Positions 3,943 to 34,425 of a stretch of DNA of 64,000 nucleotides are shown one piece after another. Positions within the stretch are counted from its first letter, which is position 1. Each line of letters opens with the position of its first letter. This DNA comes from Candidatus Kapaibacterium sp. (GTDB lineage: Bacteria; Bacteroidota; Ignavibacteria; Palsa-1295): NCBI GenBank assembly GCA_035632315.1, contig DASQGZ010000048.1:64740-128739 (forward strand), written 5' to 3'. The notes under the pieces were generated by a model. It was given only the letters and a program-made list of their open reading frames with translations, searched no databases and was not told the origin of the DNA. The position numbers and the translations under genes are program-made.

Positions 3943-5256
3943 GTGGATTTATATACTCATTCATCAATCAATCCCACTATGAAAAAAATCTTAAAGATCG
4001 TTGGTATCATTGTCGGTGCCATTGTTCTGCTTGTTGCAGGATTTATTGGTTTTCTCAAGGTAGCCGGGATGCCAAGTTTTAGCAATGTGAAGCGGCCCGA
4101 CGTTCATGTCGAGGTTACGCCAGTACGTGTCGAGCGGGGTCGCAAGATCATGGGTATGCTCTGTTATAATTGCCACTATAATGCAGCAACGAATAAGCTG
4201 AGCGGACATTTTCTCAATGAATCGCCGCCGGTCTTTGGGAAGATCTATTCCCACAATATCACGAGCGATAAAACGAACGGTATCGGAGGCTGGACAGACG
4301 GAGAAATTTTATACTTCCTGAGAACAGGTATTCATAAAAATAACGAATACGTCCCGCCATATATGCCGAAGTTTCCGCACATGGCAGAAGAAGATATTCA
4401 ATCGCTCGTAGCATATTTACGTTCGAATGACTCTCTTGTCGCACCGAGTACAGCACCCGATACTGCAGAAGAGCCCTCGTTGCTTGCTCTGTTTCTCGGA
4501 CGATTTGTTTTTAAGCCGTATTCGTATCCGACAGAAAATATTCCGTTACCTCCTGCCGGCAACTCCGTTGCTGTCGGGAAATATTGGGCGGCCAGTGTAC
4601 TTGATTGTTATCAGTGCCACAGTGCCGATTTTAAAACGAACGATGGTTTGAATCCGGAAAAATCAGTCGGATTTTTCGGCGGCGGCAACGAACTAACCGA
4701 TCCGATAGGTAAACCTGTCTTTTCAAGAAATATCACACCTGATATGGAACACGGTATCGGCAAGTGGACGCCGGGTATGTTCTTGCGTGCGCTCCGAGAC
4801 GGTCTTCGTCCGGATAATACGGCACTTCGTTACCCAATGGCACGCTTCCCGGAGCTCAGCGATTCTGAGATCGTTGCGATCTATGATTATTTACGAACCG
4901 TCCCGTCGCTTTCGACACCAAACAAGCAAAGTGCGGATTACAAATACGCAAATGCGAACCCCTCTGACGGTGAAAAAGTCTATTATAAATATGCGTGCTA
5001 TGCCTGTCACGGGCAGAACGGAATTGGGATGTGTGACCTGACGCATGCGTGTGATAAATATCATAGCGATGAAGAACTGACTAATTGGATCAAGAATCCG
5101 TCGAAGATCATCCCCGGCACGAAGATGCCGACGTGGGAAGGCACGATCCGCGAAGAAGAATTCGCGCCGCTGGTGCAATATGTCCGCCAACTCGGACATG
5201 AGACCCAAGCGAAGTTAAAAGAGAACAGCCAAAAAACAACGGCTTCTCTTAAGTAA
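3943..5256 (+). CDS. Membrane-anchored tri-heme c-type cytochrome
   Basis: 437 aa with an N-terminal TM helix and three CXXCH motifs (CYNCH, CYQCH, CYACH). Confidence 0.8.
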   Translation: MDLYTHSSINPTMKKILKIVGIIVGAIVLLVAGFIGFLKVAGMPSFSNVKRPDVHVEVTPVRVERGRKIMGMLCYNCHYNAATNKLSGHFLNESPPVFGKIYSHNITSDKTNGIGGWTDGEILYFLRTGIHKNNEYVPPYMPKFPHMAEEDIQSLVAYLRSNDSLVAPSTAPDTAEEPSLLALFLGRFVFKPYSYPTENIPLPPAGNSVAVGKYWAASVLDCYQCHSADFKTNDGLNPEKSVGFFGGGNELTDPIGKPVFSRNITPDMEHGIGKWTPGMFLRALRDGLRPDNTALRYPMARFPELSDSEIVAIYDYLRTVPSLSTPNKQSADYKYANANPSDGEKVYYKYACYACHGQNGIGMCDLTHACDKYHSDEELTNWIKNPSKIIPGTKMPTWEGTIREEEFAPLVQYVRQLGHETQAKLKENSQKTTASLK

Positions 5257-5279
5257 TCGCCATTATAACTTATGATGCC

Positions 5280-5314
5280 AATGGCGGGCCCGGAAAGACC
5301 CGCCGTTTTTTGTT
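5280..5314 (+). terminator. Rho-independent terminator after the cytochrome gene
   Basis: GGCGGGCCCGGAAAGACCCGCC hairpin followed by GTTTTTT. Confidence 0.5.
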
Positions 5315-5386
5315 GCACGTTTTTTTCCCATTCGTTGTATTATCTTTTTGTGTTGGGCGACGCTCTCCGCCGTCCGATAATCTGTT

Positions 5387-7270
5387 GTGTTGTCACGGAA
5401 ACGTTCTTGTTCTATGGATACGATCAATCTGGTAAAACGAATTGCGTGCTTTGTTGTTGTCGCAATTGTCTCGCTGCATTCTGCTCTTCATGCCGAAACA
5501 ACGTATAACCCTGGTAATTATGTCGTCAAAGATATTTGGGTCGACCCGTCGAATGGAGCTGATTCATACGACGGCTCAACCAGGGCAAAGGCCGTCAGAG
5601 ACATTAATACTGCCTGGGGCTTGATCCAGCAATTACAAATAACGACGACAGGCTATCGCATCATGCTCGTTGCCGGAATGTATTCTGCCGATTCGACACC
5701 AAACTTTCAATCTCTCGCGGCAACATTCAAATACCCGGTCATTATTCAAGCCGCGGACGGTAACGGCACTGCTTCGCTGCCGAGGATCACGGTGATCGGT
5801 TGCAGTTACCTGTATTTTATCGGCGTTAACATCCGAACTGTTTTTGGCGGTGATGCTTTCGGCGCGACAACAAGCGACCACTTGCTTCTGAGTAATTGCG
5901 GGATCGACGGCCTTAACAGTGATACTACAGGTTCCGAATCGCAAAATGCTGTCAGTTTCACTACCTGCCAGTATTGCTATATTGAAGATTGTACCATCAA
6001 GCATTCAACAAATGCGCTTGCATATTTCAGCGCGTGTCAATACGGACATATTCTACACTCAACTCTCGACTCGACTGCCGGAACAGGTATTTATGCCGGA
6101 AGCGGCTCAGCATATTTATACTTTGAACGCAATATGCTCCGTAATGCTGCCGGCAGAGGCTTTCTACTCGGCGGCACAAGTTACCTCGATTATGATTTTA
6201 TTACGCCCTGGCTGCATTACGATACCTACGATATCAAGATCGACAACAACATCATTGCCAACACACAAAAAGAAGCATTTTTGGTCAATGGCAGTTACGA
6301 TGCGCTCATTGCGTATAATACTTTTTATAAGACCGGCGATTCCGCTGCGACAATGTTTATCGTCGGGTTAGGAAACCGGACGTGCAATTACGATCAATTG
6401 AAATGTAAAACATTTCTCGACAGCGGCGCCTGGGGTACGGTACATATTTACCAGACTGATGACGATGCGGCATGGATACCGAATAAACACCTCTATATAT
6501 ATAATAATATCTTTTATAATCCTACCGGATCGCAAACGTCTTACGGCGAGCTTTCCGTCTGGGGTTCTCGTAAAGCGTTGAGCCATGCGTCGTGCCCCAA
6601 GCCAGCGTATGCTGACGACGATATGGAGTTCAAAGGCAATGTCATTTTCAATGGCGTGCTTTCAAAACCGTTGGGGCTTTCCGATACTTCCGGGTGCCAG
6701 GATTCGAATCTTACGTGCAATAAAAATCTGATCATTACGGAAAATTCTTTGAATATCCAAGAGCCTGATCTCGTCGGTGCGAGTAATGGCGACTTGCATC
6801 CGAAACCGGGCAGTTTTTTATTCAGTACAAAATTATTCGCGATCCCTAACTTTATCTGGACCGATCTGCCCGGTCGGCCGATAGAACCACAAGGCGATCT
6901 CTCAAATGCGATCACCATAGATTTCGACGGTAAGATCCGCAGTTCCGGCTCCGACGCTCCCGGTAGTTTCAAAAGCTCGACGGCATCGGTTCACCAAACA
7001 TCGCCTGCCGATTTTTCTGTCGGCGATCCTGTCCCGAATCCGGCATCCGATCACGCGGACATTTCGTTTTTGCTCACCGGCCGCGCTCTCGTTCGGGCCA
7101 GTGTTCACGATCTGCTCGGCAGAGAGATCGAACTCATTGCGAACGAATCATTCGAGCAAGGTATGTATCATCTGCCAATTTCAATAGCGAACCTTGCAAC
7201 TGGCGCATATTATATTTGCGTATCTGCCGAAGGGACAACGATCACTAAGGCTTTTTCCGTGATTCGATAA
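5387..7270 (+). CDS. T9SS-secreted right-handed parallel beta-helix (pectin-lyase fold) protein. The likely true start is the Met at 5414.
   Basis: Signal peptide MDTINLVKRIACFVVVAIVSLHSALHA and PbH1-like repeats. The C-terminal ~80 aa resemble a T9SS sorting domain (FPNPASDH...YICVSAEG...KAFSVIR). Confidence 0.7.
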   Translation: MLSRKRSCSMDTINLVKRIACFVVVAIVSLHSALHAETTYNPGNYVVKDIWVDPSNGADSYDGSTRAKAVRDINTAWGLIQQLQITTTGYRIMLVAGMYSADSTPNFQSLAATFKYPVIIQAADGNGTASLPRITVIGCSYLYFIGVNIRTVFGGDAFGATTSDHLLLSNCGIDGLNSDTTGSESQNAVSFTTCQYCYIEDCTIKHSTNALAYFSACQYGHILHSTLDSTAGTGIYAGSGSAYLYFERNMLRNAAGRGFLLGGTSYLDYDFITPWLHYDTYDIKIDNNIIANTQKEAFLVNGSYDALIAYNTFYKTGDSAATMFIVGLGNRTCNYDQLKCKTFLDSGAWGTVHIYQTDDDAAWIPNKHLYIYNNIFYNPTGSQTSYGELSVWGSRKALSHASCPKPAYADDDMEFKGNVIFNGVLSKPLGLSDTSGCQDSNLTCNKNLIITENSLNIQEPDLVGASNGDLHPKPGSFLFSTKLFAIPNFIWTDLPGRPIEPQGDLSNAITIDFDGKIRSSGSDAPGSFKSSTASVHQTSPADFSVGDPVPNPASDHADISFLLTGRALVRASVHDLLGREIELIANESFEQGMYHLPISIANLATGAYYICVSAEGTTITKAFSVIR

Positions 7271-7342
7271 CACCGAATCTGGCTTACGATTAGAACTTAC
7301 GGTTCGCACGAAAATTTTGCGACTATGTTGTAGTATTGCGTT

Positions 7343-8143
7343 ATGAAAACGGTGATAATAGCGGTGTTTGTCTTTGCGGTCTCCGCGCATGCTCAAATGT
7401 ATCAGGGTAAGCAGGTATCGAACATTTCCTTAGTTTCAGGGGCTGTTAAGCCCGGCAAGCCGTTCACGCTCGGCATTCATATTCTGATGGAATCTGGCTG
7501 GCATACATATTGGAAGACACCGGGTGATGCCGGTGCGGCACCTGTTGCCGAGATCATTGGTGCACCGGATCTTACCGCCGGAGAACTGCGCTACCCGACA
7601 CCACATAAGATGATTTCGAGCGACATTGTGACGTATGGTTACGACGAAGAAGTCGTTTTCCTGCTGCCGGTACGCCCGAATAATGCAAACGCACCACACC
7701 GCTTCAAATTAAAACTGAACTGGCTCGTTTGCAAAGAAGTGTGTCTGCCGGCAGAGGCGATCCTTGAATTCAATATCGATTCGCTCAATGCCGACAGCAT
7801 CAAAGAAAATCAGCGGCTGCTCGACAGGTGGACGGCAAGATTGCCGCAGCCCGGAGCGGGTTTCAATCTCGACCATGCCGGAGCGCTGGCAACTGTTACA
7901 AAAGACAGCGCGATCAATCTGTTTGTTAAATTCTTCGATGTCGCACCGAATACCATTACTGATTTTTTTCCCATCGACCAGGAAGATTTTGTCATCAATT
8001 ACAACAGCATCGCTGCAACGCGCGACGGCATTTCAATGACGCTCACACCGGGACGTAAAGGGGCCGAACTCAAACAGATTGCCGGTGTCGTTCTGATCGG
8101 CACGACGGGATACGAAGTGAATGTGCCGGTGACGAAACAATGA
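7343..8143 (+). CDS. Secreted DsbD N-terminal (alpha) domain-containing protein (ScsB or DsbD-alpha like)
   Basis: Signal peptide plus the HTYW and WLVCKEVCLP motifs characteristic of the DsbD N-terminal domain. Confidence 0.65.
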   Translation: MKTVIIAVFVFAVSAHAQMYQGKQVSNISLVSGAVKPGKPFTLGIHILMESGWHTYWKTPGDAGAAPVAEIIGAPDLTAGELRYPTPHKMISSDIVTYGYDEEVVFLLPVRPNNANAPHRFKLKLNWLVCKEVCLPAEAILEFNIDSLNADSIKENQRLLDRWTARLPQPGAGFNLDHAGALATVTKDSAINLFVKFFDVAPNTITDFFPIDQEDFVINYNSIAATRDGISMTLTPGRKGAELKQIAGVVLIGTTGYEVNVPVTKQ

Positions 8144-20546: not shown

Positions 20547-21854
20547 TTAAGACTTCTCTTTCAGCGACATCTTTTTCTTTTCAAGCAATTCCTTTTCCGC
20601 CGGAAGCGGCGCGAGTTCGATCGCACGTTCCAGAGATTTGATCGCGTCAGACGTTTGCTCCAACTGGTCGTAAAACTCTGCCTGCGTAGAATAGAACAGA
20701 TGATACGATTTGACAGATGGATTCTCTTTTATTCTCTCAAGTTCAGCCAGTGCAGATTCGGCTCCGTGGACCTTCGAAAGCGAGATCGCACGATTGAGCA
20801 GAACGAGTGGCGAGCTATCGAGTTGGATCAGGCTATCGTAAAGAGAAAGGATGTTTTTCCAATCTGTAGATTTGTAATCGGCCGCAATGCAATACGTTGC
20901 CGAGATCGCGGCGAGAATATGGTAGATGCTGAGGTCTCCATTCTCAGTTGATTGCTGCAGATAGCTCAGACCGATACGTTGTTTTTGTGTATCCCATAAG
21001 CTGCGATCCTGTTCAGCCATTGTCAGCAGATTTCCTTCGGCATCCTGGCGCGCAGCAAATCGCGATGAATCCAGGAACATCAGCGAGAGCAACGCATATA
21101 CATTTCCTTTCTGCCGAATCGCATTATCGTCGGCCAGCATCTGCGCCAGTCTGATGGCTTCTTCGCATAGTTCGTAGCGAATAAGGTTAGTGCCTTTCGA
21201 TGCGCTGTAGCCTTCGTTGAAGAGAAGATAGATCGTTTCAAGAACGGTGCTCTGCCGCTTTTCGAGATTTTTTCCTTCGGGCACTTCAAACGGAATTTTA
21301 TCTTCGCGGATTTTTTGTCTCGCTCTGACTAATCGTTTATGAATATTAACTTCCGTTGTCAGAAATGCTCTCGCAATTTCGGGAATGCTGAATCCGCAGA
21401 GCGTTTTTAGTGCGAGAGCAATTTGTGAGTCCGCAGAGATCGATGGATGGCAGCAGGTAAAGATCATGCGAAGCTGGTCGTCCTGGATTTCTTCTTCGGA
21501 AAAAAGATGATTTAGCGCCGGCTCGGCAGTCCATTCTGATTGCAAATAATGTGAAACTTCGGTTACATACTCGTTCTTATATTTCTCGCGGTTAAGGACA
21601 TTGAGTGCCTTGTTCCTGGCGACGCGGTAGAGCCATGCCGTCGGGTTATCAGGCACGCCTTTTTCTTTCCACTGACCGAGTGCTTCGATGAGTGAGTCCT
21701 GTACGACGTCTTCAGCCATTTCCAGGTTTCTTGAGCCAAAGATACGCGTAAGAACGGAAACGATCCTTCCCGTTTCATGTCGGGACAAATTCTCAATGAG
21801 ATCGTTAATATCCAATGTTTCTTCTTCGGTAGGCATACTGAAGGGCGTCATCAT
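20547..21854 (-). CDS. ECF-type sigma-70 family factor with a long C-terminal extension (DUF6596-like)
   Basis: Region 2 (DVVQDSLIEAL..W) and region 4 HTH followed by a ~200-aa TPR-like tail. Confidence 0.7.
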   Translation of the reverse strand: MMTPFSMPTEEETLDINDLIENLSRHETGRIVSVLTRIFGSRNLEMAEDVVQDSLIEALGQWKEKGVPDNPTAWLYRVARNKALNVLNREKYKNEYVTEVSHYLQSEWTAEPALNHLFSEEEIQDDQLRMIFTCCHPSISADSQIALALKTLCGFSIPEIARAFLTTEVNIHKRLVRARQKIREDKIPFEVPEGKNLEKRQSTVLETIYLLFNEGYSASKGTNLIRYELCEEAIRLAQMLADDNAIRQKGNVYALLSLMFLDSSRFAARQDAEGNLLTMAEQDRSLWDTQKQRIGLSYLQQSTENGDLSIYHILAAISATYCIAADYKSTDWKNILSLYDSLIQLDSSPLVLLNRAISLSKVHGAESALAELERIKENPSVKSYHLFYSTQAEFYDQLEQTSDAIKSLERAIELAPLPAEKELLEKKKMSLKEKS

Positions 21855-21913
21855 GGCCGAAATTCATCCTAACAGAGTTATTTTTAAAGAAAACTCCTTA
21901 CAAAAATACAAAA

Positions 21914-22008
21914 TAAAAAAAACCGTTAACGCAGGGAGCTATAGCGGCTTCAATATATACCACCGGTGAAGACTTACTTTCCCAAGCCTGACTGGCTAAG
22001 TATTATCA
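21914..22008 (-). repeat. Decayed copy 1 of the 5S rRNA 3'-end plus terminator unit
   Basis: An A-run, a degenerate hairpin and ~45 nt matching the 5S 3' end (GACTTACTTTCCCAAGCCTGACTGGCTAAGTATTATCA versus 31124-31160). The stop codon of gene 21996-22595 lies inside it. Confidence 0.55.
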
Positions 22009-22595
22009 ATGCCCCCAGAGGAGAATGCAAGAATTATATTTGCGTAAGTTCGCCAGTCCTTCATGCTCGTATCAATTCTTAAGTATGGAAGACGAGTTTT
22101 GCCAAGAGCATCAATTCTTCTTTGTTGAGAGGTTTGAACTGCAGCTATCGCATTCTCTCGAGATCCGTAATATGCAATCATCACATCGGCATATTCATTA
22201 TTCTCAGTGCGGTCAATGGATCGGCGTTCAGTAAGTGAAGCTTCGAAGCTAAGCAAAATAATACAAGCCCCCAATTCAAACAGCCGTTTGTCGAAAGCTT
22301 CCAATTTTTCCCAATAAGGAAAGAGAGCGTAGCCTGTAGGATGAAATCGCTCAACAACAATTATCTCGGATGGCTGTTTTTCCTTATGCTGCTCAATGTG
22401 GCGAAGACTTACTTCCAATGCATCAAAATGCGGCTCTGCTTTCCATGATTCATCTCGTACTTGCTGCATAAGACTACCCAGAGTTTCCTCTTCAGAAATA
22501 TAATATGTTGTTGTCGGCAAGAGTGTTTTTAAGTCTCTGATAACGGAGCTTTTTCCCGATCCGGTAACACCTTCTATGATTATGATTCGATTCAT
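21996..22595 (-). CDS. P-loop NTPase / kinase-like protein
   Basis: Walker A motif EGVTGSGKSS. The C-terminal 4 codons are encoded by the 5S-like repeat. Confidence 0.5.
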   Translation of the reverse strand: MNRIIIIEGVTGSGKSSVIRDLKTLLPTTTYYISEEETLGSLMQQVRDESWKAEPHFDALEVSLRHIEQHKEKQPSEIIVVERFHPTGYALFPYWEKLEAFDKRLFELGACIILLSFEASLTERRSIDRTENNEYADVMIAYYGSRENAIAAVQTSQQRRIDALGKTRLPYLRIDTSMKDWRTYANIILAFSSGGIDNT

Positions 22596-22671
22596 CGCAC
22601 GGGTAATGAGGCACAGCGCAAAATAATTCTATAAAAAACCTGTCAACCCAGAGCAATTTCTCCTAAAAACT

Positions 22672-22732
22672 AAAAACTTACAACTAACGATTACCCCACC
22701 TACTTCCCCAAGCCGACTTGCTAAATATCATC
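22672..22732 (-). repeat. Decayed copy 2 of the 5S 3'-end unit
   Basis: CCTACTTCCCCAAGCCGACTTGCTAAATATCATC is ~85% identical to the 5S 3' end. It contains the stop codon of gene 22728-23255. Confidence 0.5.
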
Positions 22733-23255
22733 CACTGGTCTTCGGTTTGCGCTTTAGAATCAGAGCACAAATGAGGCTGATGAAGACACCGACTGGAAAG
22801 ATCTCGAGGAATGTCATCCCTAATTCTATGAACGGATTGGCGTACCACTGCTTCCACTCGGCCATTTCCTTCGTTTTTGCCAGAATTACTGAATCCGATG
22901 CGCCGCTCTTTTTCAGGTTATTCACCATTTGTGCAGCATATTTATCGGCAAAATCGGGCAAGGCGATGGAGGAATAAATTTTCCAGCTTACTACATAAAA
23001 CACCGAAGCAATGATCGAGATATAGAGGCCAATGAGAAACGCTCTCCCAAAAGTCACGCTGCCGCCCAAATAATTATCGCGGTAATTGCGAATGCCGAAG
23101 AAGATCATCGAAAGCGAAACGATCATCGTGGCATAGCCCACCACCATGGAAGTCGAACTGCCTTCGGATGCCAATGGCACCGAAAACGAAATGACCATTA
23201 AGACGACAATGATAAGCCCGGCAATAATGCCGTAGGTGAAAACAACTTTACGCAT
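22728..23255 (-). CDS. Hypothetical 4-TM membrane protein
   Basis: 175 aa with four hydrophobic helices. Confidence 0.4.
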   Translation of the reverse strand: MRKVVFTYGIIAGLIIVVLMVISFSVPLASEGSSTSMVVGYATMIVSLSMIFFGIRNYRDNYLGGSVTFGRAFLIGLYISIIASVFYVVSWKIYSSIALPDFADKYAAQMVNNLKKSGASDSVILAKTKEMAEWKQWYANPFIELGMTFLEIFPVGVFISLICALILKRKPKTSG

Positions 23256-23397
23256 AGGTGTATTGATTAATGATTTTTTTTTTTTGGTTTATTTCGATCA
23301 CATGAATCGACGGCAGCAAAAATAGCTATTTCCACCGGAAATGTCAATAGCACTTTAGTGTATTTCTGCAAAAATAATGACATTTAGCACTTTGGTG

Positions 23398-23832
23398 CTA
23401 TTCGATGAGACCAATACGGCGCGCTTTTTCGATCGCCTGTGTGCGGCGCTCGGCTTCGAGCTTCCGGAATAAGGTCGAAGTGTGCTTCTTGACGGTATTG
23501 AGCGAAAGAAATAATCTATCTGCGATTTCCTGATTGGAATGCCCGGCGGCGATCAGATGAAGCACTTCGCTTTCACGGGGACTGATACCGAGATCGGCAG
23601 GAGATATCCGGGCAGATTGAGCCACTTCGGCAAGCATGAACTGCGTTCGGTGAGTTGCCGTCAGCTTCCGGCCTATCCAAAGGCCGAGCAATGTGAACAC
23701 CAGAGCAATAACGCCGACATAGTACTCTATCTTCAGATCATAGACAAAGTATTTATAATCGACGAACTTCAGCAGCAACAGCAGTCCCGCCATCGAAAGC
23801 GCATATAAATAGATCGGTCGTTTCACGGACAC
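23398..23832 (-). CDS. Membrane-anchored LuxR/GerE-family HTH transcriptional regulator
   Basis: N-terminal TM helices and a C-terminal LuxR HTH (ESEVLHLIAAGHSNQEIADRLFLSLNTVKKH). Confidence 0.7.
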   Translation of the reverse strand: MSVKRPIYLYALSMAGLLLLLKFVDYKYFVYDLKIEYYVGVIALVFTLLGLWIGRKLTATHRTQFMLAEVAQSARISPADLGISPRESEVLHLIAAGHSNQEIADRLFLSLNTVKKHTSTLFRKLEAERRTQAIEKARRIGLIE

Positions 23833-23912
23833 AAAGATACGAAGAAAGCCAAAAAACCCGCTAGCACGAAGCGATAGCGCGCTAACATAGAAAAAACAAG
23901 AACTATGGGCAG

Positions 23913-24623
23913 TTATTCAGATTGTTTTCCAAAACCAAACAGTACGCCGAGGGTAATGCGAAAATCTCTGGTAAAAATTTTCTGATTATCAACCTCTCCT
24001 CCACCCAGATCTTTACCATATTGAGCATTAAGATTCGTTAACCCGTAATCATAGGCTGCTTCGAGAAAAATCATCGTCGTCGGACTAACATTATAGGTCG
24101 CCCCTACTCCACCTATAATTCCGAAATTTATTGAAGTAATGTCGCTATCAGGTATATCGATTGTCGAATCTGTCACAGACGTAGTAACTCTCTGCTTTGC
24201 AGAAAGTTTGAATCCAATCTCAGGCCCTATGAATACCATCGGCCTCACATTCCCAGAGCCGAACGATATTTTGAAAAGAATTGGGATTTCAAAATAAGAG
24301 CCATTATACGAGGATGAATATTTGTATGATGTACCAAATAATGTAAACGTCTGATCTGTGGTACCTCCTTTTTGCACATAAGACGGCTGCGCCGACACGC
24401 CAAAATGATCTGAAAACCAGTAGTCAAATTCCGCGCCGATGGCAATGCCGGTTGTCGATCCGTGCGTCAAGCCGGATATTGTGTCAGGGTCGAATGATAG
24501 CGAGCCGATATCAATTCCACCTCTAGCACCAATCCAGATACGAGGTGATTGAGCATGAAGCTGGCCTCCTGCAGTGGTGAGGAGCAACAATGCCCCGAGA
24601 ACCCAAACATGACGTTGTTCCAT
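23913..24623 (-). CDS. Outer-membrane beta-barrel (porin-family) protein
   Basis: Signal peptide, alternating amphipathic strands and a C-terminal aromatic-rich strand. Confidence 0.6.
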   Translation of the reverse strand: MEQRHVWVLGALLLLTTAGGQLHAQSPRIWIGARGGIDIGSLSFDPDTISGLTHGSTTGIAIGAEFDYWFSDHFGVSAQPSYVQKGGTTDQTFTLFGTSYKYSSSYNGSYFEIPILFKISFGSGNVRPMVFIGPEIGFKLSAKQRVTTSVTDSTIDIPDSDITSINFGIIGGVGATYNVSPTTMIFLEAAYDYGLTNLNAQYGKDLGGGEVDNQKIFTRDFRITLGVLFGFGKQSE

Positions 24624-24679
24624 ATAAAGGTCATTGAGTGAATTACAACAAAGATACTAAAGAATCTTGATGCGAGATA

Positions 24680-24745
24680 AAAAAAAACTCGAATGCAAGA
24701 GCGATAGCGGGGTAACATACAACCCCCTGACGATGACCTACTTTC
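24680..24745 (-). repeat. Decayed copy 3 of the 5S 3'-end plus terminator unit. It is a candidate distal boundary of the island.
   Basis: AAAAAAAACTCGAATGCAAGAGCGATAGCGGGGTAACATACAACCCCCTGACGATGACCTACTTTC is ~85% identical to 31068-31135 (terminator, flank and the last 25 nt of 5S). Confidence 0.55.
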
Positions 24746-25037
24746 AGATTCTTCGCGGAGTTTTCACTGAGCAGATGTGAATGTGCTCAGAATGACACCG
24801 CTGGTTGAGCTTTATAGATTAATATCACAAAAGTATATAAAAATTTGATAAATTACACTATTTATCAATATTTTATCAATAATACTTGCATTTTTGATTT
24901 TTATTTCGTATATTTGCAGCCAGAGATTAGCCAACATATCTGAAGCCGGCATCCTGCCCGCTCATCATTCAGCGTTTCCGGCACCTCCTTCATTCAAGTA
25001 CTGCGAAGTACATTTATTGCCAAGTACTTTTATCGTT

Positions 25038-26426
25038 ATGCAACAGACAACTCCTTCCGAGTTCGCGCATTCGCGGCTTGGGCTTACTTCATGGAAAAAA
25101 TTCGATGCCATTTTCGAAGCCGTCGAAGCGGGGCATCGGCGCATACTCGTTCGAAGCGCAAATGGCGTCGGCAAAACGACGGCGCTTGCGGCGCTTTGCA
25201 ACTGGAAGCTTTCGACTTCGGACGAATGCATCGTCCTCACCACAAGCTCCAGCGAAAAACAGCTTCGGCATAATCTTTGGGGTGAGATCAGGGCGCAGGC
25301 GATGAAAGCGAATCTGTATGAACCGAAAGATATCACTGATACGCGCATCAAGCTCGGCGAAAAAAGATTTATGCTTGCGGTTTCTCCTGCAAAGCCAGAA
25401 TCCGCGCAGGGGTTTCATGCTGCAAGCATGCTCATTGCCGTTGATGAAGCCACCGGGGTTCGCCGCGATATTCTTTCTTCGCTGATCGCAACGGCAAGCA
25501 GTGACGACGTGCAGATCGTGATGATCTATAATCCCATCACACCCGATAGTTTTGTTTATGAAGCAGAGCGATCGGGCGATTGGCACCTCGTCACGATCAG
25601 CGCGCTCGAACATCCGAACGTTGCAAAGAAAAAAACGAAGATCGCAGGCGCCGTTACCTTGAAAGCGACGGAGCATAACCTCAAACTCTGGAGCGAAGAA
25701 GCGGCGCCGGATGACGGCGAATCGTTCGAGCTGCACGGCAAATGGTGGCGCAAGACGCTCGAAGTCTGCCGCCGCATTCTCGGTCAGTGGTACGACGATT
25801 TTGGCGAAGGTATCATCTCGCGCGCGCTCGTGAATGCTGCAATCACCAATACAAATGCCGAGCGCGGAGCGAAGTCGATGGGTGTCGATCTTGCCGGCGG
25901 CGGCAAGGACGAGACCGTGATCGCCCGCTTCGATGGAGGCATCGGGTTGCCGCTGATCGTTATGCGCTCATCAAAAATTCTTGATATCGTTTCACGCATC
26001 GAAGAAGAATACCGCTCAGGATTTACGCGCATTGCCATCGATGAAACAGGTGTCATCGGCACGGCGTCCGAACTGCTTGCTGTGCGCGATATCAAGGTGC
26101 ATTCGGTTGCATTCTCGGCAAAGGCGATCGGCACATACGACAGCCGCGTCCGAACGCTCGGCAACAGGCGAATGGAAATGTATTACCATCTGCGCGAAGA
26201 ACTGCGCGCCGAAAAATTGCAATTAGTAGATGACGGAAAACTTGCCGAAGAACTTTGCACGATGAAGCTATCGACCAAAAGCACGAACGATAAATATTAC
26301 CTCGAACCGAAAGAGAATATCACCGCCCGCCTCGGCCACTCCCCCGATCGCGCCGATGCTACAGCGCTGGCACGATATGCGAATTTATTAGCGGAATATG
26401 ATGCCAAACCGCTCGTGATGTTTTGA
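25038..26426 (+). CDS. Phage terminase large subunit-like protein (ATPase plus RNase-H-like nuclease). The track ORF starts at 24894, but the likely start is MQQTTPSEF.
   Basis: Walker A NGVGKTT, Walker B VDEA and a C-terminal nuclease domain beginning GVDLAGGGKDETVIA and ending PDRADA. Upstream is a Bacteroidetes-type -7 element TATATTTG. Confidence 0.65.
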   Translation: MQQTTPSEFAHSRLGLTSWKKFDAIFEAVEAGHRRILVRSANGVGKTTALAALCNWKLSTSDECIVLTTSSSEKQLRHNLWGEIRAQAMKANLYEPKDITDTRIKLGEKRFMLAVSPAKPESAQGFHAASMLIAVDEATGVRRDILSSLIATASSDDVQIVMIYNPITPDSFVYEAERSGDWHLVTISALEHPNVAKKKTKIAGAVTLKATEHNLKLWSEEAAPDDGESFELHGKWWRKTLEVCRRILGQWYDDFGEGIISRALVNAAITNTNAERGAKSMGVDLAGGGKDETVIARFDGGIGLPLIVMRSSKILDIVSRIEEEYRSGFTRIAIDETGVIGTASELLAVRDIKVHSVAFSAKAIGTYDSRVRTLGNRRMEMYYHLREELRAEKLQLVDDGKLAEELCTMKLSTKSTNDKYYLEPKENITARLGHSPDRADATALARYANLLAEYDAKPLVMF

Positions 26427-26465
26427 GGGCATATCCGTTTGGGATTGAAAGTGGCTCCGAGAGGC

Positions 26466-26975
26466 TTAACGTTTCAATCTTGCCGAGAATTCAACCCCAA
26501 TTTCCGCAACAAAATCAGAATCATTGACCCAGCGAACATTCATATTTTCACAGACATTTGGAATTCTTACATTTCTTGCACTTGGGGCAGTTACTTTCCC
26601 CTCCTTGGTAACAACGCAAGCATTTTCTTTCATAGCGTGTGCAATTACCCAAGGGTCAGCAAGCGACCGATTCCTTCTATTATCCACGAGAAACTTATGC
26701 AGTGGATTCGTGTCGTATATTTTTTGCAAACATTTTGTAACTTCTTCATCTATTGGCTTTTTCTCTATGCTACTTTCTCGCAACCATTCTGCCAGGTCAT
26801 CATCCGTTTTCGTAATTTCTTCGAAGACATTTTCTGGTAGAAAAATTATCCCCGTGTGACCAATATCATTGAGAATACTCCAATAATCCGGGCAGAATTT
26901 TGGAGAATAATAAAATTGCCAAGCCTGAATAAGGACGTTGGCGTCCAAACAATATTTATCAGAGCGTGGGGGCAT
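26466..26975 (-). CDS. DUF4411-like PIN-fold protein, putative nuclease/toxin
   Basis: 169 aa with the N-terminus YCLDANVLIQAW. It lies 8 nt downstream of the ImmA/IrrE gene, so it is an operon partner. Confidence 0.55.
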   Translation of the reverse strand: MPPRSDKYCLDANVLIQAWQFYYSPKFCPDYWSILNDIGHTGIIFLPENVFEEITKTDDDLAEWLRESSIEKKPIDEEVTKCLQKIYDTNPLHKFLVDNRRNRSLADPWVIAHAMKENACVVTKEGKVTAPSARNVRIPNVCENMNVRWVNDSDFVAEIGVEFSARLKR

Positions 26976-26983
26976 TATTAAAA

Positions 26984-28168
26984 TTAATAAAGCTGTGCTA
27001 GCATTTTAGGGAATTTAGTGAGTGAAATATTTAATAAGCTGCTTGCCTGGGTCGGTTGAATAAATCCACCTTTGAAAGCATCAATAACAGTCTGTGTAAA
27101 TAATTTGCCATTTTTATTTGCAAGCAACAAATAATAGTTAGGCCCCCCTTCTTTCTCTTTAGAAGCAAGTTTCTTGGCAGTCTCCTTTTCAATGTATTTC
27201 TGAAACTCTTTGTCGAGTATATTCTTAATAACCCTGTATTTCTCTAAGGAAATTAAACCTAAATTGTACCCGCGTACTAACAACGCTAACGAGCTTACGC
27301 CAAAAATTTTTGAAGTCTTGTACAATTTTTCCTGAGAATGGAAAAGTGACGGATCCAACTTCTTGATTATCTGGTAAGGCATTAATGCCGATGCGGCTAC
27401 TTCATTGCAAAAATATTCAACTGGTTCAGGATGGCCTGCAGATTTTGCCTGCGGAATTATGTCATTAGAAATTCCGGATGCTGCAATCCAAACATGTGCA
27501 AGTTCATGTACAAGTGTAAATAACTGAGGAGTATCCCAATCATTGGAATTGATAAACACGAATGGTGCATGCTGGTCGGCAAGAGCAAAACCTTGCATCT
27601 CGTCGCTATCTAATAAGAGTTTCGAATGTATTAAGCTTGTTCTTGAAATAAATATCCCAGCCCGTTCAGCGCTTGCAATCCATTCACGATACGGATTCAC
27701 CGTTTTATAGTGAGCTGGATCAATTTGCAAGGTCTGTAGGATATCAGCAGCTACCTTTGCCGGGTCATCTGATGAAGAAAATTTTCCAACGAACGGAAGC
27801 TTCTCTTCTCCATTCTCTTGGTAAAATTCTCTCATCCATTCTTGTTTTTGACGAAGTTCTCTAATAATAAATTCGGATGCCGTCCCCAATGGCTTCGCAC
27901 TTTTTTTTCGAAAATCCTTTAATGGTTGAAAGTCTATTGGGGGCTCGGGAAGAAAGAAAATGGCAAAGGGTCTTTTATAGACTTTCGCTAATTTCTGTGC
28001 TTGTTTAATAGTTGGCAGGCCTGTACCGGCTTCCCATTCCAGTAACTTGTCAGTATCAATTGCCGCTTTTAAGGCAGCAATTTCAGGAGAAATTTTTGCA
28101 GTTTCTCGAGCCCACTTAAGGACGACGGGTGTAACGTTTGCTCGGTCTGCCATTAGAGATGAAAACAC
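26984..28168 (-). CDS. XRE-type HTH fused to an ImmA/IrrE family zinc metallopeptidase (DUF955 / M78)
   Basis: N-terminal HTH and the HELAHVW HEXXH motif. Confidence 0.8.
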   Translation of the reverse strand: MFSSLMADRANVTPVVLKWARETAKISPEIAALKAAIDTDKLLEWEAGTGLPTIKQAQKLAKVYKRPFAIFFLPEPPIDFQPLKDFRKKSAKPLGTASEFIIRELRQKQEWMREFYQENGEEKLPFVGKFSSSDDPAKVAADILQTLQIDPAHYKTVNPYREWIASAERAGIFISRTSLIHSKLLLDSDEMQGFALADQHAPFVFINSNDWDTPQLFTLVHELAHVWIAASGISNDIIPQAKSAGHPEPVEYFCNEVAASALMPYQIIKKLDPSLFHSQEKLYKTSKIFGVSSLALLVRGYNLGLISLEKYRVIKNILDKEFQKYIEKETAKKLASKEKEGGPNYYLLLANKNGKLFTQTVIDAFKGGFIQPTQASSLLNISLTKFPKMLAQLY

Positions 28169-28202
28169 ACAAGCACCTATAAAGTGGTTCCATAATGTAG
28201 AC

Positions 28203-28754
28203 TTATATTACTTCCCAGGCAGAAATTTTGGCCTGTTGATGGATAGGATGCTTTAAACCAGTACGTATTTGCTCTATACGATTCCCCAATTTAATTTTTA
28301 CTACCGATTTTGCAATTGCCTCAAAAGATTTTAAAAGAGGTTCAGTGCTAATAATAGCCGGACTATGTTCATAGCTAATCGTTAACACTGCTTTTCTTTC
28401 CTTACCCTTCCATTCCCGAAGTTTTAAGCAATCGCCTATCGCGCTTGAATTCCCCGGATATGGATGGAGGAGATTCACTGTCCAATTTTCAGCTTCTTTG
28501 CCGTTATCACCATACGGCCGTGCAATTTTAAACTCAATTGCCCAATAATCTTCTATCAGAAGATCTGGATTGCGTTTTGCCTTGCATCGCCCATCGAAAT
28601 GTTTAAGCTGATTCAGGTAGTATTCTATTCTCTTGACCAGTTGCGGCTCACCATACGGCCCGACTCCGGGATGATAGGCCTTAAACGGCGGATCGTTTTT
28701 ATCAATTTGAACCAGTGCATCTGAGATGTCTTTTACAACATTGTTCAGTGTCAT
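28203..28754 (-). CDS. Hypothetical protein with a PD-(D/E)xK-like nuclease motif
   Basis: RNPD-LLI-EDYWAIEFK fits D...(D/E)xK spacing. It lies 34 nt upstream of the ImmA/IrrE gene on the same strand. Confidence 0.35.
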   Translation of the reverse strand: MTLNNVVKDISDALVQIDKNDPPFKAYHPGVGPYGEPQLVKRIEYYLNQLKHFDGRCKAKRNPDLLIEDYWAIEFKIARPYGDNGKEAENWTVNLLHPYPGNSSAIGDCLKLREWKGKERKAVLTISYEHSPAIISTEPLLKSFEAIAKSVVKIKLGNRIEQIRTGLKHPIHQQAKISAWEVI

Positions 28755-28881
28755 AGTAGTAAGATATTTCTTGAAAGAAATAAAAGTTGCTTATGCAGAG
28801 TGATAGTCGTTTACCATACAATCCCTGTCAACGATCCGTTCGCCACCGATCACCTTTTGCGATCTTGGGAGAGCCGAATTT

Positions 28882-28903
28882 CTGGTGATTAAAAATCACC
28901 AGT
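28882..28903. promoter_or_regulatory. Perfect palindrome CTGGTGATT-aaaa-AATCACCAG ~130 nt upstream of the PD-(D/E)xK gene. It is a candidate operator.
   Basis: 9-bp arms. This is the only such site in the window. Confidence 0.3.
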
Positions 28904-28976
28904 TAATATATGTTGCTCCGAAGTGACGACATATAACTTATTGTTCACTATTTATCACATTTAACAATTTACACCT

Positions 28977-29147
28977 ATGAAAACCCAATACATGAATAAC
29001 GTCCCGTTTCTTCCGGGAGAATTAACCATTGTGACATCCGATCATGCCGAGCTGGCGATGCAGCATTCGGCGCGGCTTGCCGATTCGTTTCGCAGGGCGC
29101 GGCTGAACGGGAATAATAGGGGTGAAAACACTGTTTTATCAATGTGA
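28977..29147 (+). pseudogene. 5' fragment (49 codons plus RBS) of a paralog of gene 29696-30400. It forms direct repeat 1 (28975-29109).
   Basis: ~95% nucleotide identity to 29694-29828. The reading frame is open for 49 codons and then diverges and stops. Confidence 0.6.
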
Positions 29148-29320
29148 AAAAACTCACAATCGAAACCAATACCCACCTCAACGACCGCGATAAGCGGCGG
29201 GCTGCTATTGTGCATTCGGTCATTGCGTCGTCCCGGATCGAAGGGATATTGTTGACCAAAGCGCAGGAAGAAGCCATTGCCCGTCGGGTTGACAAGCGTC
29301 TTAAAAAAGACTCCGAATGA
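29144..29320 (+). CDS. VbhA/YhfG-like Fic-antitoxin remnant (58 codons, GTG start)
   Basis: Contains SSRIEGI, matching the (S/T)xxxE(G/N) Fic-inhibitory motif. It is convergent with, and overlaps, the Fic fragment. Confidence 0.4.
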   Translation: MKKLTIETNTHLNDRDKRRAAIVHSVIASSRIEGILLTKAQEEAIARRVDKRLKKDSE

Positions 29321-29600
29321 TCCGTTTCATCGGTTCATAGTTTTCATCGGCGGCCGCCTGGACCGCTGCAACATATTCGTCAAATCGTTCTTCTGTGATC
29401 TTCTCGAAGTGCAGTAATTCGAACCCCTGCTGAACAGCCATTGCATTTGCCAGAATTCGCATCACGCGACCGTTGCCTTCGCGGAACGGATGGATGAATA
29501 ACAACTCGGCATGGACGACGGCGATCGCATCTATCAATGCGTCACGACCCGGATACAGCAGCGGCAATTGTTTTAGAATATCCGTTTCGAATTTCTGCAT
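29301..29600 (-). pseudogene. N-terminally truncated Fic (filamentation induced by cAMP) domain protein
   Basis: HPFREGNGRVMR is the canonical Fic motif. At 99 aa it lacks the N-terminal helices. Confidence 0.6.
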
Positions 29601-29650
29601 TGTCAGCGGCAGGTACTTTCAGGTAAGAGCGTAATCAACCACCCCAACCC

Positions 29651-29680
29651 CGCCTTGAAAAGGCGAGACAGATTTTTTTT
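29651..29680 (+). terminator. Hairpin CGCCTT-gaaa-AGGCG followed by a T8 run
   Basis: Seen directly in the sequence. Confidence 0.45.
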
Positions 29681-29695
29681 AATCTATCAACATCT

Positions 29696-30400
29696 ATGAA
29701 AACCCAATATATGAATAACGTCCCGTTTCTTCCGGGAGAATTAACCATTGTGACATCCGATCATGCCGAGGCGACGATGCAGCACTCGGCGCGGCTTGCC
29801 GATTCGTTTCGCAAGGCGCGGCTGAACGTCCTTGTCATTAATTGCGGGATGAACGAGCGCCGCTTCCGCCAGCATTATCACGATACGTACGGCTCCGGTA
29901 TCGATACAACACCGACGGTGATCCTGAAGACATCGCTTTTAGGAAATGTCGCCGGCGACCGCGAAGGGATCGATCAGATCGTGCGCGAAGCGAAGATCGG
30001 CGTCGTGATCCTTGCCGGCTGGGAATTTGCATCGGGAACGCGCCGCCGCCGCAACAAATTATTCTTTTACCTTCGCGAGCTCATGGCCGAACGCGATATT
30101 GCCGTCATCGTGTATTCGCAAACGATGAATAATCCTGTTGCCGGAAAAATGGGCGCACTCGGAAAGCTTGCCGCCGCGGCAATGGAAGTGGTGAAGATCG
30201 ATTCGTCGAAAGTGCTGGAAGCGGTCGTGAAAAAGCCGCCCGTGATCGCGTGGGAATCGGCAGATGAGATGCATACCATTGAACAGGGGGTACAGCGATT
30301 AGTCAGGAATATCAATGAGTTAGCAGACCATCAGTGCACATCGGATGAAGATGCACGGCAAATAGAGAATGACGATGGAGACTACGGCGTGGCGGTGTGA
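29696..30400 (+). CDS. Hypothetical protein. The beta-strand pattern suggests a RecA-like fold without a Walker A motif.
   Basis: 234 aa. Its first 49 codons are duplicated upstream at 28977. Confidence 0.35.
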   Translation: MKTQYMNNVPFLPGELTIVTSDHAEATMQHSARLADSFRKARLNVLVINCGMNERRFRQHYHDTYGSGIDTTPTVILKTSLLGNVAGDREGIDQIVREAKIGVVILAGWEFASGTRRRRNKLFFYLRELMAERDIAVIVYSQTMNNPVAGKMGALGKLAAAAMEVVKIDSSKVLEAVVKKPPVIAWESADEMHTIEQGVQRLVRNINELADHQCTSDEDARQIENDDGDYGVAV

Positions 30401-30442
30401 AAAAGCCGATGTACGAATTTCCGTTGCCGAAGGGCCAGGGAT

Positions 30443-31069
30443 ATGTATATTTGCAAGAAGGATATAATTATGATACTACCTAAACTGTTACTTTCACTGA
30501 TCATCTCGGTTTCTATTTATAGTTTTTTCCCTCAGGGCGACGATCTGAATCTCGGATTTGAGCGAGTTGGTTACAAAGCCAAACCCATTGGCTGGTATGC
30601 CGGAGGAGGAGGAGGAAAGAAAGATGACCTTGACGGTTATCTCGGAGAGTGCGATTCGACGACAGTTCACTCGGGAAAATATTCTTTGCACTTGAAATAT
30701 CTCAAAGGTGACGGCTTCGGAGTCGGAACGAAAACACTCGACATCGCCCCACTCAGAGGCAAAACCATTCGCTTCAGCGGCTGGATCAAAACCCACAACG
30801 TCGGCGGGAAGAAAGATCACAATTTCGACGGGTACGCAGGTTTGTGGTGGAGAGTAGATGGGCCGGATCACAAGACGTTAGCCTTCAATAATATGCAAGA
30901 TAGCTTGGTCAACGGTACCCGTGATTGGCAGAGATATTCATTTGAATTACCGGTGGGAGAAACCGCTACGAATATAGATTTCGGAGTTCAAATGGCAGGG
31001 AAAGGCGAAGCATGGTTCGATGATCTGTCCATCGATACCAACGGGGTCCATTATTTAGGTTGGAAATAA
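30443..31069 (+). CDS. Hypothetical secreted protein
   Basis: Signal peptide and a G-rich linker. No catalytic motifs. Confidence 0.4.
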   Translation: MYICKKDIIMILPKLLLSLIISVSIYSFFPQGDDLNLGFERVGYKAKPIGWYAGGGGGKKDDLDGYLGECDSTTVHSGKYSLHLKYLKGDGFGVGTKTLDIAPLRGKTIRFSGWIKTHNVGGKKDHNFDGYAGLWWRVDGPDHKTLAFNNMQDSLVNGTRDWQRYSFELPVGETATNIDFGVQMAGKGEAWFDDLSIDTNGVHYLGWK

Positions 31070-31074
31070 AAAAA

Positions 31075-31106
31075 CCCTCGAACGCAAGAGCGATCGAGGG
31101 TTAACA
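31075..31106 (-). terminator. rRNA operon terminator (CCCTCGA...TCGAGGG hairpin followed by U-run on the minus strand)
   Basis: Sits immediately 3' of the 5S gene. Confidence 0.5.
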
Positions 31107-31111
31107 TACAA

Positions 31112-31228
31112 CCCCTGGCGACGACCTACTTTCCCAAGCCTGACTGGCTAAGTATCATCGGCTTACAAGGGCTTAACTGCTCTGTTCGGAATGGGAAGAG
31201 GTGTAGCCCCTTGGATATAGTCGCCAAA
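31112..31228 (-). rRNA. rrf: 5S ribosomal RNA
   Basis: Minus-strand sequence CCATTCCGAACAGAG...GTTAAGC...GGGAAAGTAGGTCGTCGCCAGGGG has the canonical 5S helices. Confidence 0.85.
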
Positions 31229-31439
31229 AGGAAACTTTATGAGTGGTCAGTGATCAGTGGCCGGTGGTCAGCTGATCAAAGACAGCGAACGGTGTGAATT
31301 GCGAATGATACGAGTATCGAACTATTGAATCTACATTCAATAAGTCTAAATTGTGACGAACACTATACCAAACACTATAGTAATGCGGTAGTAAGGTGTT
31401 TTGCGCGAGAATGTCGCACAAACTATCTCTACTACGAAA

Positions 31440-34425
<2,986 letters not shown>

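Follow-up and report, generated by a model that had tools for sequence, protein, structure and literature searches.

Genomic islands anchored on structural RNA genes are textbook knowledge for tRNA and transfer-messenger RNA (tmRNA) genes, where the partial duplication of the 3' end of the RNA gene, together with restoration of the gene itself, is a hallmark of integrases. In Neisseria, minimal mobile elements are hypervariable regions that are exchanged through conserved flanks. With regard to rRNA genes, the nearest published case is hypervariable region 2 (HVR2) of SAR11, which lies between the 23S and 5S genes (PMC2217521). Our literature searches found no report of a 5S rRNA gene as an island anchor or of 5S-anchored arrays. 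Here, we describe a locus of Candidatus Kapaibacterium sp. located on a stretch of 64,000 nucleotides, hereafter the window (assembly GCA_035632315.1, contig DASQGZ010000048.1, positions 64,740 to 128,739 of the forward strand). In this locus, the 9.2 kb between an intact 5S rRNA gene and the gene of an extracytoplasmic function (ECF) sigma factor are divided into short gene modules by decayed copies, or relics, of the 5S 3' end and its terminator. The best reading of this array is an additive, hypervariable island at the 3' end of an unlinked 23S-5S operon. The same layout, with different genes, recurs through the Kapabacteria-like lineage.

The anchor of the array is the intact 5S rRNA gene (31113-31228, minus strand; Rfam RF00001, 85.5 bits, model positions 1-120), which is accompanied by a full-length 23S rRNA gene (31490-34416, minus strand; Rfam LSU, 2797.7 bits). 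Neither a 16S nor a tRNA gene was found in the whole window by Rfam and tRNA searches, and this 23S-5S operon is unlinked to 16S. The 5S gene is followed by the master module (31065-31112, minus strand), comprising a 12-nt spacer, a terminator hairpin and a T7-ATT run. The module received a terminator-like call and folds at -20.7 kcal/mol (z -6.8), its hairpin being ACCCTCGA-T-CGC-TCTT-GCG-T-TCGAGGGT. The 5S tail exhibits stop codons in all three frames, so that any gene entering it is closed within 35 nt.

The window was searched with the master unit (31040-31240) using nhmmer and blastn-short and, as an independent check, with a profile built solely from the terminator modules of relatives. 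Five decayed copies, c1 to c5, were found, all in the 5S orientation, that is, on the minus strand, and all inside the 5S-to-sigma interval. The relatives-only profile gave exactly five matches in the window, all on the minus strand between 21.9 and 31.1 kb: the master module (E 9e-12), c3 (1e-5), c1 (1.7e-5), c4 (1.4e-4) and c5 (0.03). Neither search found a copy in the other ~55 kb of the window. The first-pass annotation of this DNA had reported three copies, all in the 5S orientation and 85-95% identical to the master unit. All three were recovered with the master unit, c2 being weak (nhmmer E 0.04), and the shared orientation extends to all five copies; however, c4 and c5 had been missed, and the measured identities are about 76-89% overall.

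The copies differ in what they retain. Copy c1 (21911-22010; nhmmer E 4e-11 over 21911-22007) comprises 47 nt of 5S, the spacer, a partly kept hairpin and a T8-ATT run; its core is identical to 5S positions 31127-31155 (29/29), ungapped identity is 76% over 72 nt, and it folds at -10.9 kcal/mol. Copy c2 (22633-22742) exhibits about 36-47 nt of 5S starting from GATGATA, a degenerate spacer and hairpin, and a T-run. Its recognisable match is limited to 22697-22742 (89% of 36 nt; blastn-short E 0.002), which concerns the 5S part alone, its terminator part being degenerate and giving no hairpin on folding. In copy c3 (24665-24754; nhmmer E 1.7e-11), the last ~21 nt of 5S, the spacer and the hairpin are present with 87% identity to the master unit over 69 nt, and the stem no longer pairs (-4.7 kcal/mol, z -0.2). 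Copy c4 (23850-23892; terminator-like call) is devoid of a 5S part and consists of the spacer, an intact hairpin folding at -12.5 kcal/mol and a T-run; by eye, it is nearest to the copy preceding the GerE gene in relative L011. Copy c5 (28773-28843; nhmmer E 0.008) retains the spacer and ~21 nt of the 5S end, and its hairpin part has decayed so far that no stable hairpin is left. The 5S tail kept as a direct repeat in c1, c2, c3 and c5 therefore measures 21-47 nt, the proximal 5S being of full length. Half of the six window units still fold (master, c1 and c4), the other three being in decay; selection on all copies as terminators was rejected, since c2, c3 and c5 fold no more.

Two genes terminate inside the copies, as the first-pass annotation had noted. 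The open reading frame (ORF) of an AAA kinase (21996-22595) ends in GAT AAT ACT TAG, which corresponds to GATGATACTTAG of the 5S with one change. Three sense codons and the stop are thus encoded by c1. The stop of the DUF4199 ORF (22728-23255) is the TGA of the GATGATA in c2. Genes also run into copies in relatives, namely an antitoxin gene in L049, the gene of a 749-aa protein in L070 and the kinase gene in L132. In the window, the copies delimit five modules of one to four genes each, mostly of 0.7-4 kb, in the order E, D, C, B, A away from the 5S gene. The distal end of each module is formed by a relic that comprises 0-47 nt of the 5S tail together with the spacer and the 5S terminator, which supports the earlier claims that the copies mark module boundaries and that the terminator belongs to the duplicated unit.

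The layout is not limited to the window. A metagenome scan with the 22-nt 5S end retrieved 120 loci, a first pattern with the window-type helix IV having given no match, and the array layout was found in eleven related loci from metagenomes or metagenome-assembled genomes (MAGs). Ten loci were tallied (the window, L011, L033, L049, L057, L070, L077, L078, L102 and L132), and these hold 22 extra copies, all on the 5S strand, which divide modules of one to four genes. Four extra copies are present in L070, two each in L049, L057 and L078, and one each in L077, L102 and L033; L136 holds one further decayed relic. When loci with at least 1.5 kb downstream of the 5S are considered, extra copies occur in 7/12 Kapabacteria-like loci versus 8/76 loci of other lineages. 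Among these eight, L026, L074 and L084 represent a different, termite-gut phenomenon, and two others are second rrn operons in complete form. Apart from the source MAG, only a single Logan run, with the same arrangement, contained the exact window proteins. A search of the genome collection with the sigma protein was uninformative, as it returned distant paralogs or orthologs (33-68%) with no rRNA nearby.

Distally, the array is flanked by the conserved ECF sigma factor gene, with a DUF6596 domain (20547-21854, minus strand; Pfam), of which orthologous blocks are present in L010, L011, L136 and L138; beyond it lie YCII, SDR and two AHSA1 genes (Pfam). In L011, the order is the 23S end, 5S, terminator, an NmrA gene, a second 5S tail with terminator, a 181-aa ORF, GerE, DUF4199, sigma, YCII and AHSA1. 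The sequences indicate that the rrn-sigma neighbourhood is conserved between the window and L011, the 5S-to-sigma interval measuring 3.4 kb in L011 versus 9.2 kb in the window, and L011 having its own one-gene module. As GerE/LuxR, DUF4199 and sigma are colinear in both, with 66-87%, 76% and 78% protein identity, respectively, module B, which carries the first two, must be old. The kinase module A lies distal to module B, is flanked by well-preserved copies and is absent at the same position in L011. Insertions have therefore not all occurred at the 5S gene, and the farthest module is not the oldest. A candidate relic located between the DUF4199 and sigma genes of L011 was considered and dropped, its match being no better than those of shuffled sequences (p 0.36-0.8).

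Among the relatives, the flanks are conserved and the module content varies. The modules as a whole comprise toxin-antitoxin pairs, phage remnants and ORFans; those of the relatives include PIN and PBECR2 toxin modules, a Bro-N protein (L070), a type IX secretion system (T9SS) protein and genes of unknown function. L049 and L057 share a distal FkbM methyltransferase gene (91% identical at the amino acid level, 82% at the DNA level) and a distal 5S copy, the most distal of each array, which is nearly of full length (96-106 nt kept), whereas their modules differ; insert content varies among L049, L057 and L078. In L102, sigma is missing and the copy lies directly against the AHSA1 pair. Dispersal of the unit away from 5S genes and relatives of identical content were the two observations that the first-pass annotation regarded as speaking against its interpretation. 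The former was not clearly seen, with no match elsewhere in the window though with an orphan fragment in L138, and the latter is contradicted by the differing modules.

The kinase of module A provides the most informative comparison between arrays. It has only seven homologs in 5.8 billion proteins, and the closest, 73% identical and found on three MAG contigs and one Logan contig, is also fused to a 5S fragment. It is located in the arrays of L132-L135 with different neighbours, in the order gene, 5S fragment, antitoxin/YoeB, 5S fragment, kinase, 5S fragment with terminator; the YoeB pair is common to L132 and L136 (75% DNA identity). In both genomes, protein homology stops at ...LAF, where 5S-like sequence begins. 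The 5' untranslated regions of the two kinase genes are alike, by eye, back to the preceding T-run, and the hairpins behind them are unrelated. Within the 5S part, c1 exhibits the window-specific GGCTTGGG and L132 exhibits GGTTTGGG. As a neutral relic inherited together with the gene should be unrecognisable at 73% protein identity, the relics must have been replenished from the 5S of the resident genome, which is precisely what would be expected of a Campbell-type crossover within the 5S part.

With regard to the junctions, the 5S sequence retained varies from 0 to ~106 nt over the 22 copies (nhmmer boundaries), with no single crossover position apparent. A single site-specific junction was thus not upheld, the boundaries being spread over 0-106 nt, where later erosion may have contributed. 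Several independent junctions (c1, c2, L070 copy 1 and perhaps L011) lie within a few nt of GATGATAC, beside the palindromic helix IV. The 3' limit, in contrast, is sharp in every unit, at T6-8ATT. Exchange between units is suggested by the hairpin of c3, which is a hybrid of two arm types: its left arm is of the type found in c1, c4 and the copy L011f (CCCCGCTA) and its right arm is of the master type (TCGAG). In the strains L132 and L135, which share 97% identity, a 21-nt insertion has changed its place from one unit to its neighbour. L057 has a distal copy that matches its master at 98% identity over 144 nt, whereas the flanking coding DNA is only 82% identical to that of L049. The 5S relics of L132 (1019-1120 and 1647-1775) and L135 (195-344) hold small hairpin insertions, of 21 nt (TCGAAGATTCGCTGCGGCGAA) and of 23 nt, whose distribution is mosaic across neighbouring units and across the two strains.

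In a Pfam scan of the array ORFs of at least 99 aa and of those other window ORFs of at least 170 aa that overlap neither a longer ORF nor the rRNA genes, no recombinase domain was found, nor was one found in the scanned modules of L011, L049, L057, L070, L102 and L132. No integrase was found in the ~25 modules of the Pfam-scanned arrays, including those beside an intact 5S. Three scans of viral contigs gave no match to the 5S tail or terminator, and hence no attP candidate, and BLAST against phage and plasmid collections gave generic 5S similarity only. The Bacteroides phage LoVEphage (OY731433.1) carries a 5S-like gene annotated by barrnap (57700-57805; 59 aligned nt, 85% identical to the window 5S), which no integrase adjoins. 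At the head of the array, which is the 23S-5S operon, intI, attI and Pc were not found. No attC core motif (RYYYAAC/GTTRRRY; R''/R') was seen in the units by inspection and folding, no attC or integron finder having been run. The spacer was also considered as a dif/Xer site and rejected on inspection, the likeness being confined to TATGTTAA in the window genome and absent in relatives.

The contents of the window modules were assigned by Pfam, starting from the 5S. Module E (28844-31064) comprises two ORFs of unknown function (30443-31069 and 29696-30400, plus strand) and a truncated Fic ORF (29301-29600, minus strand), with a GC content of up to 0.53. The Fic ORF carries an HPFREGNGR motif and is bracketed by a direct repeat of 139-150 nt that is 95% identical and not 5S-derived (28960-29109 and 29679-29828); a Logan assembly of the same sample appears broken near both copies of this repeat. 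Module D (24755-28772) exhibits a GC mosaic of 0.37-0.56 and comprises a 183-aa ORF of unknown function, an M78/IrrE peptidase with a DUF4411 (PIN-like) protein, and a homolog of the terminase large subunit (phrog_2, E 1e-24). The terminase homolog (24894-26426, plus strand) is solitary, with no other phage structural genes nearby, and its GC content of 0.53-0.56 contrasts with ~0.44 around it. On the minus strand (26466-28168), the M78/IrrE-type peptidase gene (394 aa) is directly followed by that of the DUF4411 protein (169 aa); the pair exhibits the lowest GC content of the region (0.37-0.41) and is likely a toxin-antitoxin or abortive-infection pair. Taken together, modules D and E range from 0.37 to 0.56 GC versus a background of ~0.44, a foreign composition. 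Module C is an outer-membrane beta-barrel gene (23913-24623, minus strand; PF13568, E 4e-28). Module B (22728-23832, minus strand) comprises the GerE/LuxR regulator gene (23398-23832) and the DUF4199 membrane protein gene (22728-23255), colinear with L011, and module A is the AAA/thymidylate-kinase-like ORFan (21996-22595, minus strand).

Several observations in other loci concern 5S-derived or repeated sequences. L138 holds an orphan 33-nt 5S 3' fragment (6845-6885) with two mismatches to the lineage-B 5S, located 60 nt upstream of the sigma ortholog. No 5S lies within 6.8 kb upstream of it, where housekeeping genes occupy the other strand, and this relic is separated from its rRNA operon. 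In L136, a family of 56-nt GC-rich intergenic repeats unrelated to the 5S unit (399-453, 1591-1646, 4418-4450 and 5224-5260) follows several genes, one repeat being placed between the YoeB module and sigma. In L064 (340-1039), L074 (1-420), L026 (1-330), L084 (190-460) and L018, a second 5S-like element is found directly behind the 5S and its terminator. GC-rich hairpins have been inserted between its 5S segments, and its last part repeats the 5S 3' end and the T-run exactly. These loci belong to a different lineage, and several of the contigs look termite-gut metagenomic by name; the element may represent either an enlarged RNA derived from 5S or a decayed copy into which small palindromes have spread. 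As for operon structure, rRNA genes are unlinked in the Kapabacteria-like lineage. L057 likewise has no 16S in the 4 kb upstream of its 23S, and the match of this 23S (4323-8049) covers 3727 nt versus 2925 nt for the model, which indicates an insertion of ~800 nt (intervening sequence or intron).

Based on these results, we favour, with a confidence somewhat better than even, the explanation that the 9.2 kb from 5S to sigma form a cassette array anchored on the 5S 3' end, which arose by Campbell-type recombination and homologous reshuffling between copies. We infer that one reciprocal crossover of the Campbell type would join DNA carrying a 5S-tail/terminator segment to the resident 5S tail or to one of its relics. 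The crossover would rebuild an intact 5S and terminator proximally and leave a partial copy distally, right behind the incoming gene, and genes entering a relic would be closed by its all-frame stop codons. The relics would then act as portable homology, recombination between them deleting, inserting, converting or exchanging modules, at internal positions too. Such turnover would keep the relics recognisable and of the resident 5S type despite anciently diverged neighbouring genes, and erosion at the 5' side would produce the variable 5S lengths. The founding events may have been integrations of phages or other elements. As no site-specific recombinase was found in or near any array examined, the catalyst is most likely host homologous recombination acting on homologies of 50-150 nt, and less probably an integrase acting in trans. 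The combination of target duplication and homologous recombination accounts for the single orientation, for boundaries that coincide with gene ends, for a kinase module inserted at an internal position, for the resident-type relics and for the lack of recombinase genes. Nevertheless, several points weigh against this explanation. Homologous recombination alone leaves the new gene-to-5S junctions unexplained, and RecA acts poorly on homologies as short as 20-50 nt with 80-90% identity. The clustering of junctions at GATGATAC hints at a preferred, possibly enzyme-defined site, and the recombinase search covered the window, not the whole genome. Copy c5 is the closest to the 5S gene and yet is more decayed than c3, which gives no simple timeline. 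Neither a circular intermediate nor an empty site was observed, nor any gain or loss between strains, only one sample carrying the exact genome.

Four other explanations were weighed. The first-pass annotation had proposed successive tandem integrations at the 3' end of an RNA gene, of which the variable region and the boundary copies hold, whereas the lack of an integrase, the small modules and the module order do not fit. In its full form, this explanation states that phages or elements with the 5S tail and terminator as attP integrated serially and later lost their integrases and cargo, leaving remnants of the type of cis-mobilizable elements (CIMEs). We consider this doubtful for the array as a whole and possible for the founding events. 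The duplicated RNA-gene 3' end and restored gene are what integrases leave behind, modules hold phage-derived genes (the terminase homolog, and Bro-N in L070), the GC content of modules D and E is mosaic, and junctions recur near a position beside the palindromic helix IV. Yet an integrase, the defining gene of such an island, was found in none of ~25 Pfam-scanned modules, even beside the intact 5S where the newest element is expected, and the 5S tail was found on no viral contig. Integrase sites would also fit poorly with a 5S remnant of 0-106 nt, with a young module distal to an old block and with several single-gene modules. An integron-like system, in which a recombinase encoded elsewhere shuffles cassettes with the 5S-tail/terminator hairpin as attC and the 5S operon end as attI, seems improbable to us. 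No recombinase adjoins any array, no R''/R' motifs were seen by inspection (no attC or integron finder was run), and three of the six window units no longer fold. Moreover, the hairpin behind the shared kinase differs between arrays, which argues for a unit that is partly resident-derived and not cassette-borne. These points have to be set against mostly co-oriented cassettes, often of a single ORF, abundant toxin-antitoxin modules, which are a trait of chromosomal integrons too, one cassette (the kinase) in two different arrays, the sharp 3' limit at T6-8ATT and the lineage-wide occurrence of the trait.

Tandem 5S genes are known in other bacteria, and rrn operons or 5S genes duplicated in tandem could have decayed in place, with unrelated genes inserted by ordinary rearrangement, a scenario to which the nearly full-length distal copies of L049 and L057 (96-106 nt) would correspond. 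We regard it as very unlikely, since no copy is accompanied by 23S fragments, up to five serial copies occur, all of them with a terminator and positioned exactly at gene boundaries, close relatives differ in their module content, and the kinase with its 5S fragment recurs elsewhere. A generic genome-wide repeat (a repetitive extragenic palindrome, a miniature inverted-repeat transposable element or a terminator of the uptake-sequence type) that merely resembles the 5S terminator is barely conceivable. All five window matches lie in the 9.2-kb array, on one strand, out of 64 kb, and the copies hold true 5S sequence, up to 47 nt here and 106 nt in relatives; the unrelated repeat family of L136 and the orphan 5S fragment of L138, away from any 5S gene, are the observations on the other side.

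The recurrence across a lineage, the one-gene modules and the lack of an integrase give the locus an intermediate place, with genomic-island accretion on one side and integron-type cassette arrays on the other. Should homology alone be at work, the universally conserved rRNA tail would constitute portable homology through which species exchange genes; should a recombinase act in trans, the array would represent a new cassette system. A broader proposal, which we put forward only tentatively and consider rather unlikely, is that Kapabacteria and their relatives have a hitherto unrecognised cassette-capture system functionally analogous to integrons. Its site would be the 5S tail with terminator, single genes being inserted, excised and exchanged downstream of the rRNA operon by a trans-acting recombinase or by a pure homology route; if so, many of these genes would be of toxin-antitoxin or defence type. 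In practice, the relics can mislead rRNA annotation and cause breaks in assemblies; they also point to a hotspot at which accessory and defence genes can be expected.

When compared with known systems, the locus resembles the tandem-accretion islands anchored on tRNA and tmRNA genes, and CIMEs, in that the 3' part of a structural RNA gene forms its direct repeats, this gene is restored at the proximal end, serial copies bound successive inserts, and variable content lies beside a conserved flank. It differs from them in its anchor, a 5S rRNA gene, in a repeat that includes the operon terminator, and in that no integrase was found, the modules comprise one to four genes, the retained sequence varies from 0 to 106 nt, and insertions also occur at internal copies. 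With sedentary chromosomal integrons and clusters of attC sites lacking integron integrases (CALINs), it shares short, mostly co-oriented cassettes, often of a single ORF and rich in toxin-antitoxin genes and ORFans, a structured repeat behind each cassette and the occurrence of the same cassette in different arrays. In contrast to integrons, it has no intI, attI or Pc, and its repeat is not an attC but a 5S-derived sequence with an intrinsic terminator, which appears partly resident-derived and has lost its hairpin in half of the cases. As in SAR11 HVR2 and the minimal mobile elements, an rRNA gene serves as a conserved recombination flank and the favoured model needs no dedicated recombinase. 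As in flank-mediated replacement islands, the window and its relatives exhibit conserved flanks, variable content and no mobility genes that we could find. However, SAR11 HVR2 and the minimal mobile elements are single replacement islands with no internal copies of the flank, whereas here the flank is partly duplicated after every module. The feature is thus apparently an undescribed, lineage-wide variant of the additive islands anchored on RNA genes, with an integron-like organisation.

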